A DNA stretch of 64,000 nt from a phage. The notes below the pieces were generated by a model. That model saw nothing but the letters and a program-made list of their open reading frames with translations, was not told the DNA's origin and did not search any database. The DNA lies in sequence record PV946933.1. One strand, given 5' to 3'. Positions 49,113 to 52,934 of the stretch are shown here, one piece after another (position 1 is the stretch's first letter; every line of letters begins with the position of its first letter). A program made the translations under genes and the position numbers.

Positions 49113-49586
49113 ATGTTATTGACTGGCAAATTATACAAAGAAGAAAAACAAAAATTTTATAATGCACAAAACGGTAAATGCTTAATTTGCCAACGAGAAC
49201 TAAATCCTGATGTTCAAGCTAATCACCTTGACCATGACCATGAATTAAATGGACCGAAAGCTGGAAAGGTACGTGGGTTGCTTTGTAATCTCTGCAATGC
49301 TGCAGAAGGTCAAATGAAACATAAATTTAATCGTTCTGGTTTAAAGGGACAAGGTGTTGATTATCTTGAATGGTTAGAAAATTTACTTACTTATTTAAAA
49401 TCCGATTACACCCAAAATAATATTCACCCTAACTTTGTTGGAGATAAATCAAAGGAATTTTCTCGTTTGGGAAAAGAGGAAATGATGGCTGAGATGCTTC
49501 AAAGAGGATTTGAATATAATGAATCTGACACCAAAACACAATTAATAGCTTCATTTAAGAAGCAGCTTAGAAAGAGTTTAAAATGA
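49113..49586 (+). CDS. 49: Recombination endonuclease VII (Holliday junction resolvase)
   Basis: ORF track 157 aa; MLLTGKLYKEEKQKFY...CLICQRELNPDVQANHLDHDHELNGPKAGKVRGLLCNLCNAAEG zinc-binding H-N-H-like core; recognised as T4 gp49. Confidence 0.9.
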   Translation: MLLTGKLYKEEKQKFYNAQNGKCLICQRELNPDVQANHLDHDHELNGPKAGKVRGLLCNLCNAAEGQMKHKFNRSGLKGQGVDYLEWLENLLTYLKSDYTQNNIHPNFVGDKSKEFSRLGKEEMMAEMLQRGFEYNESDTKTQLIASFKKQLRKSLK

Positions 49587-51400
49587 CAATTGAAAAAGAA
49601 ATTGAAGGATTGATTCATAAAACTAATAAAGACCTTTTAAACGAGAATGCTAATAAAGATTCTCGTGTTTTTCCAACTCAACGGGACCTTATGGCTGGTA
49701 TTGTGTCTAAACACATTGCCAAAAATATGGTCCCGTCTTTTATTATGAAAGCGCATGAAAGCGGAATTATCCATTTCCACGATATTGATTATTCCCCTGC
49801 TCTTCCATTTACTAATTGTTGTTTAGTAGATTTAAAAGGAATGCTTGAGAACGGATTTAAGCTCGGTAATGCACAGATTGAAACTCCTAAATCAATCGGC
49901 GTTGCTACTGCAATTATGGCACAAATTACTGCGCAGGTTGCTTCTCATCAATATGGTGGAACGACTTTTGCGAATGTAGATAAAGTACTTTCTCCTTATG
50001 TTAAACGCACCTATGCAAAACATATTGAGGATGCAGAAAAATGGCAAATCGCTGATGCGTTGAATTATGCCCAATCTAAAACAGAAAAAGACGTATACGA
50101 TGCATTCCAAGCTTATGAATATGAAGTAAATACTCTCTTTAGTTCAAACGGACAAACGCCTTTTGTAACAATTACATTTGGTACGGGAACTGACTGGACT
50201 GAACGGATGATTCAGAAAGCAATTCTGAAAAATCGTATTAAAGGTCTCGGTCGTGATGGGATAACTCCTATTTTCCCTAAACTTGTTATGTTCGTTGAAG
50301 AAGGTGTTAATCTTTATAAAGACGATCCGAACTATGATATTAAGCAGCTTGCTCTAGAGTGTGCAAGCAAAAGAATGTATCCTGACATCATTTCGGCTAA
50401 GAACAATAAAGCTATCACAGGTTCATCTATTCCTGTTTCTCCAATGGGTTGCCGTAGTTTCTTGAGCGTATGGAAAGATTCGACTGGTAATGAAATTCTT
50501 GATGGACGTAATAATCTTGGCGTTGTAACACTGAATCTTCCTCGCATTGCGTTAGATTCTTATATTGGAACACAATTCAATGAACAGAAATTTGCCGAAT
50601 TGTTCAATGAACGAATGGATTTATGTTTTGAAGCATTGATGTGTAGAATAAGTTCCTTAAAAGGAGTTAAAGCGACTGTTGCTCCTATTCTTTATCAAGA
50701 AGGTGCATTCGGGGTTCGTCTTAAACCTGATGACGATATAATTGAGTTATTTAAAAACGGTAGAAGTTCAGTGTCCCTAGGATACATTGGTATTCACGAA
50801 TTGAATATTCTTGTCGGTCGTGATATTGGACAAGAAATTTTAACTAAAATGAATGCTCGTCTTAAGCAGTGGACTGAAAGAACCGGATTTGCTTTTAGTT
50901 TGTATTCTACTCCTGCTGAAAACCTGTGCTATCGCTTCTGTAAACTTGATACCGAAAAATATGGAAGTGTAAAGGATGTTACTGATAAAGGCTGGTACAC
51001 TAACAGTTTCCACGTTTCAGTAGAAGAAAATATTACTCCGTTTGAAAAGATTTCTCGCGAAGCCCCGTATCATTTCATTGCAACAGGTGGTCACATTTCT
51101 TATGTTGAACTTCCTGATATGAAAAATAACCTAAAAGGTCTTGAGGCTGTATGGGATTATGCTGCACAACATTTAGATTATTTTGGTGTTAATATGCCAG
51201 TAGATAAATGTTTTACATGCGGAAGTACCCATGAAATGACTCCTACTGAAAACGGATTTGTTTGTTCTATTTGTGGAGAAACTGATCCTAAAAAGATGAA
51301 CACCATAAGAAGAACTTGCGGTTATTTGGGAAATCCGAACGAGCGCGGATTTAATCTTGGCAAAAATAAAGAAATCATGCATAGGGTTAAACACCAATGA
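49583..51400 (+). CDS. nrdD: Anaerobic ribonucleoside-triphosphate reductase NrdD (intron-less)
   Basis: ORF track 605 aa single frame; C-terminal glycyl-radical motif RRTCGYLG and Zn ribbon CFTCG...CSICG. Confidence 0.95.
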   Translation: MTIEKEIEGLIHKTNKDLLNENANKDSRVFPTQRDLMAGIVSKHIAKNMVPSFIMKAHESGIIHFHDIDYSPALPFTNCCLVDLKGMLENGFKLGNAQIETPKSIGVATAIMAQITAQVASHQYGGTTFANVDKVLSPYVKRTYAKHIEDAEKWQIADALNYAQSKTEKDVYDAFQAYEYEVNTLFSSNGQTPFVTITFGTGTDWTERMIQKAILKNRIKGLGRDGITPIFPKLVMFVEEGVNLYKDDPNYDIKQLALECASKRMYPDIISAKNNKAITGSSIPVSPMGCRSFLSVWKDSTGNEILDGRNNLGVVTLNLPRIALDSYIGTQFNEQKFAELFNERMDLCFEALMCRISSLKGVKATVAPILYQEGAFGVRLKPDDDIIELFKNGRSSVSLGYIGIHELNILVGRDIGQEILTKMNARLKQWTERTGFAFSLYSTPAENLCYRFCKLDTEKYGSVKDVTDKGWYTNSFHVSVEENITPFEKISREAPYHFIATGGHISYVELPDMKNNLKGLEAVWDYAAQHLDYFGVNMPVDKCFTCGSTHEMTPTENGFVCSICGETDPKKMNTIRRTCGYLGNPNERGFNLGKNKEIMHRVKHQ

Positions 51401-51867
51401 ATTACGATAGATTTTATCCCTGCGATTTTGTAAATGGCCCTGGATGCAGGGTCGTTCTTTTCGTTACGGGGTGTTTGCATAAATGTGAAGGGTGTTATAA
51501 TAAATCAACATGGAATGCTAGAAATGGCGTTCCATTCACTGGTGAAACACTAGAACAATTAATTGAATGTTTGAATAATGATTATATAGAAGGATTAACT
51601 ATAACTGGAGGAGACCCTCTTTATCCTGATAACCGAGATGCTGTTCATTGCATTGTTCAAACGGTAAAAAATCTTTATCCAAATAAAAGCATTTGGTTGT
51701 GGACAGGGTACAAGTTTGAAGATATTAAACAACTAGAAATGCTTAAATATGTTGATGTTATTATTGATGGGAAGTATGAGAAAAATCTTCCGACCAAAAA
51801 GCTGTGGCGAGGTTCAGATAATCAGCGACTTTGGTCAAATACCGATGGGGTGTGGAAACATGATTAA
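51397..51867 (+). CDS. nrdG: Anaerobic ribonucleotide reductase activating enzyme NrdG (radical SAM)
   Basis: ORF track 156 aa; CxxxCxxC (CLHKCEGC); ATGA overlap with nrdD stop. Confidence 0.9.
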   Translation: MNYDRFYPCDFVNGPGCRVVLFVTGCLHKCEGCYNKSTWNARNGVPFTGETLEQLIECLNNDYIEGLTITGGDPLYPDNRDAVHCIVQTVKNLYPNKSIWLWTGYKFEDIKQLEMLKYVDVIIDGKYEKNLPTKKLWRGSDNQRLWSNTDGVWKHD

Positions 51868-51981
51868 ACTGAATTATATTATTGATACTATAAATGATAT
51901 GATTTTTCATTTTGGTCCAGAATTTTATTCGCAGTATAGTTTAGTACTTATCAATGCTTGGTTAATCAATTAAGGGTAAAT

Positions 51982-52197
51982 ATGTATAAATTTCGTAAAG
52001 GTTTAGCTGATTTTCTTACAACTGTAACGTTCTTTTTGTTTATGGCAGTTGGAGCTATTTTCCTTATTCCTTTTATTGCTATATTTTTCGTGATTAGCTT
52101 AATTTCTCCAGAAAAAGGCTTATCTTCTAGTGAGTTCAATGAGCGTCTGGATAAAATTACTAACAAACTGAATGCTGTTCTTGATAAAAAGGCTTAA
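51982..52197 (+). CDS. Small membrane protein
   Basis: ORF track frame 51958..52197; start at ATG after AAGGG RBS; TM helix TVTFFLFMAVGAIFLIPFIAIFFVISLI. Confidence 0.45.
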   Translation: MYKFRKGLADFLTTVTFFLFMAVGAIFLIPFIAIFFVISLISPEKGLSSSEFNERLDKITNKLNAVLDKKA

Positions 52198-52199
52198 TT

Positions 52200-52511
52200 G
52201 TGATTAGTTTTGAGCGGTATGTGGTAGAGAGTTGGAAGGGTTTTGATATGTTCGGTAATGACTATTATTTCTATGAATGTAGTCTAAATCCTAGTTTTTG
52301 GGCTGGACGAGAACGAGAACTTGAAGAAATTAATAACCGTGCTGAATTGTTAGGTGAATTACCTACGGTTTATTTTACCTTTGATGCATCTGGATTTGTT
52401 ATCCAGGTTTATTTTCCTGAAGAAAATTCTGGCGATGATTCTGTTAACCCGCCATACTGGGCTTATCAAGGAATTATTTCTCGTGGAACAAAACTCGAAC
52501 TTAAAGAATAA
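52200..52511 (+). CDS. Hypothetical protein (start uncertain: GTG at 52200 or internal ATG at 52248)
   Basis: ORF track 103 aa; overlaps start region of nrdH. Confidence 0.45.
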   Translation: MISFERYVVESWKGFDMFGNDYYFYECSLNPSFWAGRERELEEINNRAELLGELPTVYFTFDASGFVIQVYFPEENSGDDSVNPPYWAYQGIISRGTKLELKE

Positions 52512-52806
52512 GATTGAAGTCTATGGAATTCCAGATGAAGTAGGTCGTTGTCCTGGATGTCAATCAGTTACAAAACTTCTAAAGGAGCTCAATGCTCCTT
52601 TTACTTTCTATAAAGTTCTTACAAATAATGGTAAGATTGAGTATGATCGCCCACTGATTGTATCTCTTGCTAAACGTGCTGGATTCACATCTCTTAACAT
52701 TCGTTATCCAGTCATTTTCATCAATGATTCTAGACAAAAGAACATTAAACACTTCAAAGAAACTCTCATTTCACTTGGATATGATAGAGATATCATAGAA
52801 GACTAA
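52483..52806 (+). CDS. nrdH: Glutaredoxin-like protein NrdH; no in-frame ATG, start provisionally GTG at 52483 (alternative ATT at 52513)
   Basis: ORF track frame 52354..52806; redoxin core KIEVYGIPDEVGRCPGCQSV with CPGC active site; no ATG precedes the redoxin domain without a long overlapping extension. Confidence 0.6.
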   Translation: MEQNSNLKNKIEVYGIPDEVGRCPGCQSVTKLLKELNAPFTFYKVLTNNGKIEYDRPLIVSLAKRAGFTSLNIRYPVIFINDSRQKNIKHFKETLISLGYDRDIIED

Positions 52807-52810
52807 GACG

Positions 52811-52830
52811 GGCCCTCTGGGCCTTTCTTT
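52811..52830 (+). terminator. Terminator-like hairpin GGCCC-TCT-GGGCC followed by T-rich run
   Basis: GC stem directly after nrdH stop followed by TTTCTTTCTC. Confidence 0.4.
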
Positions 52831-52904
52831 CTCATATTCTGTATATTACCATTCTAAGCTATCGTTCCCTTCTTATCATTCCCTAAAATAATTTTCACAA
52901 AGTT

Positions 52905-52934
52905 GTTTACAAGAAGTTTAAACTGTGGTATTAT
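52905..52934 (+). promoter_or_regulatory. T4-type early promoter
   Basis: TTTTCACAAAGTT-GTTTAC, 18 nt, TATTAT; upstream pyrimidine-rich block resembles the one before promoter 26186. Confidence 0.45.

Follow-up and report, generated by a model that had tools for sequence, protein, structure and literature searches.

The closest described counterpart of the gene analysed here is nrdH of bacteriophage T4, which encodes the 'NrdH glutaredoxin' and was formerly known as an 11.8-kDa ORF between nrdG and gene 55. In the T4 reference record the protein (NP_049686, 102 aa) is annotated from the GTG in taAGGAATagttGTGaaacaaaataagattgaag, giving (M)KQNKIEVYG, and the comment in that record, 'related to T4 thioredoxin but has glutaredoxin activity', is the only basis for the predicted glutaredoxin activity. 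T4 nrdH follows nrdD, nrdG and 55.8, encodes a CPGC active site, starts with GTG behind an AAGGAAT Shine–Dalgarno (SD) sequence at a spacing of 6 nt and has a terminator-like hairpin downstream; in T4 and T2 it lies 2 nt past the 55.8 stop codon, without overlap. The RefSeq record of phage RB68 contains a 312 nt hypothetical gene which overlaps a 324 nt GTG-started nrdH (YP_009167445.1) by 29 nt, and the same 324 nt coding sequence is annotated in the GenBank records of GEP001, Ge15, SF2-1 and CT01. The GTG start of nrdH is already known, as it is annotated in both the T4 and the RB68 reference records. A search of the literature for an experimental N-terminus or for mass-spectrometric, initiation-profiling or ribosome-profiling data on T4 NrdH, with the main T4 genome review outside its coverage, found none.

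The closest solved structure by sequence is that of the T4 glutaredoxin NrdC (PDB entries 1AAZ and 1ABA; E = 5e-4), whose CxxC redoxin fold starts at residue 3, two positions past the initiator methionine. NrdC is only a distant paralogue: it is started from ATG, has a CVYC site, serves as reductant of the aerobic ribonucleotide reductase and has no N-terminal extension.

The family of bacterial NrdH-redoxins, the reductants of class Ib ribonucleotide reductase, is defined by the motif C[VM]QC. Tightly coupled gene pairs, joined by ATGA or TAATG, share with the present locus two co-oriented genes and a downstream start inside the upstream gene; they differ from it in that the overlap of ORF103 and nrdH is 29 nt long and varies between lineages, and in that nrdH has its own SD sequence. 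An earlier note on this DNA had drawn attention to the lack of a suitable ATG in front of nrdH and had proposed termination–reinitiation coupling or a non-canonical start.

Materials and methods

The window is a stretch of 64,000 nt (PV946933.1), numbered from its first letter; the region belongs to Tequatrovirus (T4-like phage). SD strength was expressed as the predicted duplex energy with the 3' end of 16S rRNA. Junctions were collected from GenBank, IMG/VR and metagenomes, anchored on the motif IE[IV]YGIP, and are cited where necessary by their L numbers. Ten representative junctions from six genera (Tequatro-, Mosig-, Gapriver-, Dhaka-, Kanagawa- and Mosugukvirus) were aligned with MAFFT (alignment A3). 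Degenerate-pattern scans of IMG/VR for start-codon variants returned no contigs beyond those already collected.

Gene order around nrdH

The region is matched by 636 phage records, with a best identity of 99.6% (Escherichia phage GEP001 and Salmonella phage F13076); at least 80% of it is covered in 420 phage records and at least 95% identity is reached in 370 of the 636. The genes nrdD, nrdG, 55.8, ORF103 and nrdH (Table 1) form a co-oriented block that ends with nrdH and is then followed by the terminator-like hairpin. The last ten codons of ORF103 overlap nrdH, and the upstream stop codon lies within the 5' region of nrdH, as had been reported. This is the architecture of RB68, and neither RB68 nor the other ORF103-bearing Tequatrovirus genomes differ from the window in substance.

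Table 1. Features of the nrdD–nrdH region. Positions refer to the window.
Feature	Position	Strand	Basis or remarks
nrdD	49583-51400	+	Single uninterrupted 605-aa ORF
nrdG	51397-51867	+	
55.8 homologue (predicted membrane protein)	51982..52197	+	phrog_1930 (2.7e-36), T4 alignment; adjoins ORF103 on its upstream side
ORF103 (conserved hypothetical protein, 103 aa)	52200..52511	+	phrog_2749 (1e-48); GTG start, stop TAA 52509-52511
ATG, rejected as start	52384..52386	+	In frame with nrdH; only in-frame upstream ATG, 43 codons before ATT 52513
Shine–Dalgarno sequence AAGGA	52468..52472	+	10-nt spacer to GTG 52483; anti-SD duplex -5.4 kcal/mol
GTG, putative initiation codon of nrdH	52483..52485	+	Aligns with annotated T4 nrdH GTG
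Overlap of ORF103 (frame 0) and nrdH (frame +1), 29 nt	52483..52511	+	Direct sequence reading
nrdH (T4-type glutaredoxin-like, 107 aa, 324 nt)	52483..52806	+	GTG start, stop TAA 52804-52806
ATT, rejected as start	52513..52515	+	Conserved Ile of beta-strand 1
CPGC active-site motif of NrdH	52549..52560	+	Translation; residues 23-26
Terminator-like hairpin GGGCCCTCTGGGCC with T-rich tail	52810..52834	+	Consensus scan; directly 3' of nrdH stop; in T4 too

Several further observations were made in this region. The nrdD stop codon overlaps the nrdG start codon as ATGA (51397-51400). Two mobile elements of T4, the I-TevII group I intron within nrdD and the homing endonuclease gene mobC between nrdD and nrdG, are absent from the nrdD/nrdG region of the window (49583-51867). 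A short ORF is present in the gap between nrdG and 55.8 (about 51860-51973), where relatives annotate a 37-aa protein, labelled 'anaerobic nucleotide reductase subunit' in GEP001 (GEP001_0041) and hypothetical in RB68; T4 annotates none. About 100 nt past the nrdH hairpin a sigma-70-like promoter match (52906-52934; TTTACA, 17-nt spacer, TATTAT, extended TG) would be consistent with a new early transcription unit for 55.6-like genes, the total of promoter-like matches in the scanned region being no higher than in shuffled sequence.

The NrdH protein

Judged by sequence and gene order, the protein of the window is the orthologue of T4 NrdH: the two are 98% identical in the protein alignment and share the CPGC site and the nrdD–nrdG–55.8 synteny, and the window protein matches the phrog_22 thioredoxin domain (5e-16) and, only narrowly, PF00462 Glutaredoxin (23.8 bits versus a cutoff of 22.9). 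The redoxin domain that had been recognised from the sequence is present; it begins at 52510/52513 (KIEVYGIPDEVGRCPGC...) and follows a short and poorly conserved leader of nine residues, MEQNSNLKN. Residues C23, P24, G25 and C26 are invariant in the protein alignment A1.

The CPGC motif differs from the C[VM]QC of bacterial NrdH-redoxins. In an NCBIfam scan of NrdH the bacterial NrdH-redoxin model (GlrX_NrdH) gave no match, and the sole match was a sub-threshold one to GlrX_YruB (16.1 bits versus a cutoff of 88.55). As no NrdH-redoxin model matches, the name 'nrdH' is taken to be historical and not to denote family membership.

Initiation signals

The reading frame of nrdH is open from 52354 to its stop codon, and rereading of the sequence confirmed that ATG 52384 is the only upstream ATG in frame. 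Taking all of the evidence given below together, nrdH very probably starts at GTG 52483 by ordinary SD-directed initiation. Ribosomes would be positioned by AAGGA and would initiate at this GTG to yield the 107-aa protein MEQNSNLKNKIEVYGIPDEVGRCPGC..., with ribosome-binding site and start codon sitting in the last ORF103 codons, at ...Y-Q-G-I-I-S-R-G...; it is this placement that would make the two genes overlap by 29 nt in different frames.

The predicted SD duplex of GTG 52483 is stronger than those of the neighbouring genes 55.8 (-5.0 kcal/mol), nrdG (-3.7 kcal/mol), ORF103 (-3.2 kcal/mol) and nrdD (-2.4 kcal/mol), and it ranks in the top 6.5% when all ATG/GTG/TTG triplets of the window (6182) are compared. 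The gene thus has an in-frame GTG with a complement to the anti-SD sequence inside the range of 5-13 nt upstream, as an SD-led GTG gene does, and in the curated annotation of Ge15 the AGGA at the equivalent site is marked as a ribosome-binding site. A point against this start is its spacer of 10 nt, near the upper limit of what is usual. RNA folding of the junction predicted no stable structure hiding the nrdH start (minimum free energy -18.6 versus a shuffle mean of -18.9 kcal/mol, z = 0.10) and indicated no regulatory or spacing-shortening hairpin.

The junction of the window reads caAGGAATtatttctcGTGgaacaaaa[+15 nt]taagattgaag and is homologous to the T4 sequence; two indels set them apart, one of 4 nt in the spacer and one of 15 nt behind the start codon. 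The N-terminus of the T4 protein is five residues shorter (MKQNK versus MEQNSNLKNK in the window). Because the two junctions align, GTG 52483 corresponds to the start site annotated in T4. The absence of an ATG is accordingly ordinary, as the gene has a GTG with its own ribosome-binding site at the same site as annotated in T4 and RB68. GTG is a standard start codon in bacteria and in T4, so that the term 'non-canonical start' overstates the case. The earlier note had also held that neither GTG 52483 nor ATT 52513 has a good SD sequence, which is correct for ATT (-0.9 kcal/mol) but not for GTG.

The other candidates in the frame were rejected. ATT 52513 is without an SD sequence, and its counterpart is ATC in L023, L038, L040 and L041 and ATA in lineages with an ATG just upstream. 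GTG 52354 (+0.4 kcal/mol) and ATG 52384 (-2.4 kcal/mol) would give a protein of 140-150 aa with a hydrophobic N-terminal extension encoded out of frame inside ORF103. This longer product is very improbable. Although its frame is open in the window and one Mosigvirus GenBank record annotates a 140-aa 'NrdH', its SD sequences are weak or absent, and the extension is interrupted in relatives by in-frame stops upstream of the nrdH start, which are found at -30 in Gaprivervirus, at -27 in T4 and at -54 in L025 and the Dhakavirus-type L026 and L040, and also in T2; it is therefore not conserved. In addition, the homologous NrdC domain starts so soon after its methionine that the fold of NrdH needs no long extension. 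The doubt that had been expressed about ATG 52384 was justified, and so was the mention of GTG 52483 among the possible starts.

Conservation of the junction

An in-frame NTG within ten codons upstream often arises by chance, and the weight given to GTG 52483 therefore rests on its conservation across genera and not on its mere presence. The comparison of the junction in related phages, which had been suggested as a check, was carried out and found AAGG and the start codon fixed across six Tevenvirinae genera. All six of these genera carry ORF103, and in the alignment their start codons share one column, which falls within the 3' end of ORF103; nine of the ten junctions have GTG there and one has ATG. 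In the ORF103-bearing lineages AAGGAat, AAGGAGt or AAGGTGGt stands upstream of the start, always equally far from it in the alignment, and neither AAGG nor the TG-G of the start varies in A3.

The start and its SD sequence are kept in orthologues even though the overlapping ORF103 residue changes. Over the start, ORF103 reads CGT, TGT, TAT or AGT (R/C/Y/S), which gives GTG, GTG, ATG and GTG, respectively, in the nrdH frame. The ORF103 stretch W-x-Y-Q-G-I-I-S-R-G has nine degenerate third positions, of which seven vary and two, the A in AAGG and the T in GTG, are constant. Part of the conservation of AAGG and TGG may reflect ORF103 itself, because these bases also encode its conserved Gln/Glu-Gly and Gly. 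From the position of this signal and its conservation we infer that GTG 52483 is used in vivo.

Two lineages leave little choice of start. In Gaprivervirus (VR26, L019 and L021) a stop in the nrdH frame precedes the GTG by two codons, and in T4 stops precede it by three to four codons; as the upstream frame is closed, the GTG is the only ATG/GTG/TTG start before the domain in both.

The conservation also bears on whether a sequencing error in the window removed an ATG. Nothing beyond the absence of the ATG speaks for such an error, and an identical 69-nt junction was found in at least nine independently fetched loci; the junction recurs in hundreds of genomes and T4 itself has GTG. With so many independent genomes sharing the same junction, an error can be regarded as excluded.

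The ATG variant lends weak support to the start, since the nrdH in question has an in-frame deletion in the CxxC region. In Escherichia phage vB_EcoM_005 (NC_055783, L038 1186-1404) nrdH begins with ATG at the conserved start position, and a deletion of about 33 codons (…GIPETVM/DDKPLIVSL…) removes the CxxC active site; to judge from its sequence, this gene probably encodes a redox-dead protein.

ORF103 and translational coupling

Homologues of ORF103 were found in 527 phage records from several Tevenvirinae genera, with amino-acid identities across genera of 38-46%; ORF103 has no Pfam or NCBIfam match. Its start in the window is GTG 52200-52202 with the SD sequence AAAAGG, and the Dhakavirus-like homologue in L038 starts with ATG (MKRFEEYV...).

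In a termination–reinitiation scheme, ribosomes finishing ORF103 at its TAA would restart at ATT 52513 or, 26 nt back, at GTG 52483, with little independent initiation at nrdH. We consider this unlikely. The two genes are co-oriented and overlapping, so that ribosomes translating ORF103 must cross the nrdH start. Coupling is also common at the nrdH locus: in the lineages without ORF103 (Jiaodavirus, STML-198-like, Aeromonas phages and others) nrdH starts from an ATG that precedes IEIYG by one to four codons, and this start mostly overlaps the stop of the gene before it, as ATGA or in a similar way (L009, L030, L033, L039 and L045). Against reinitiation in the window stand the strong SD sequence of GTG 52483 itself, the replacement of ATT 52513 in relatives and the lack of a structure sequestering the site. 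Counted from the first base of the GTG, the ORF103 stop lies 17 nt downstream in Gapriver- and Dhakavirus, 23 nt in Kanagawavirus, 26 nt in the window and 32 nt in Mosigvirus; in the last, CAA replaces the TAA and ORF103 continues to the TGA inside ATTGAA, with SD sequence and GTG unchanged. A stop and restart that adjoin or overlap by 1-4 nt, a fixed distance between them and a downstream gene without an SD sequence, by which coupled pairs are recognised, are all absent here. Given the shifting position of the stop and the absence of a predicted stable RNA structure, there is no support for tight termination–reinitiation.

The SD sequence and GTG are also kept in two deletion types that remove most or all of ORF103, that of T4 and T2 and that of Shigella phage CT01. 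In the T4/T2 type ORF103 is gone entirely and the AAGGAAT...GTG module is still there, a further point against the coupling that the earlier note had suggested. The end of T4 55.8 together with the nrdH leader (cttagtAAGGAATagttGTG, L004 3614-3620) looks like a deletion derivative retaining the 3' end of ORF103. In CT01 (OK018184, L048 312-575) the deletion lies between the short repeats GAATGCTGTT and GATTCTGTT (TCTGTT/GCTGTT) and joins 55.8 in frame with the final 24 codons of ORF103, with loss of ORF103 and retention of the nrdH SD sequence and GTG.

With SD-directed initiation at GTG 52483 as the preferred reading, translation of ORF103 may also contribute, through loose, generic coupling by ribosomes that cross the site, although such coupling is not required. 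As the ribosome-binding site of nrdH lies inside ORF103, translation of the latter could tune the output of NrdH.

A +1 ribosomal frameshift in the overlap would produce an ORF103–NrdH fusion. Such a product would mirror the situation in Pectobacterium phage PM2 (NC_028940.1 41901-42500; L028/L047), in which the ORF103 homologue and nrdH lie in one stop-free frame annotated as a 199-aa 'glutaredoxin'. However, PM2 is a single genome, and its junction is one base off in an A7 run (a 1-nt gap in the MAFFT alignment). If one A is added, the TAA stands at -4 as usual and a GTG at -21 comes into frame; in the sequence as deposited this GTG is off by 1 nt. Because one extra A restores the usual junction, the single PM2 frame is most simply put down to a homopolymer error or a recent indel. 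The overlap contains no conserved prfB-like or other shifty motif, and in Gaprivervirus a stop shuts the target frame two codons ahead of the GTG, and a shift could use only eight codons. A programmed frameshift at this locus is accordingly highly improbable.

Should the PM2 fusion be real, it would be a Rosetta-stone hint that ORF103 (phrog_2749) works with the redoxin beside the anaerobic ribonucleotide reductase genes. That ORF103 and NrdH are functional partners with linked synthesis is a tentative proposal to which we give a low probability.

Annotation of nrdH in public records

Public start calls for nrdH in T4-like genomes are inconsistent, with versions of 107, 140 and 88 aa. The value of the present analysis lies mainly in annotation quality, i.e. 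in a consistent call of the nrdH start at the conserved GTG, and no new translational mechanism is needed. In phage JS10 (EU863409, L007 734-1000) nrdH is called from an internal ATG, giving 88 aa with loss of beta-strand 1, and in Mosigvirus vB_EcoM-172859UKE1 (MZ234025, L005 575-997) it is called from an upstream ATG, giving 140 aa; both calls skip the conserved GTG.
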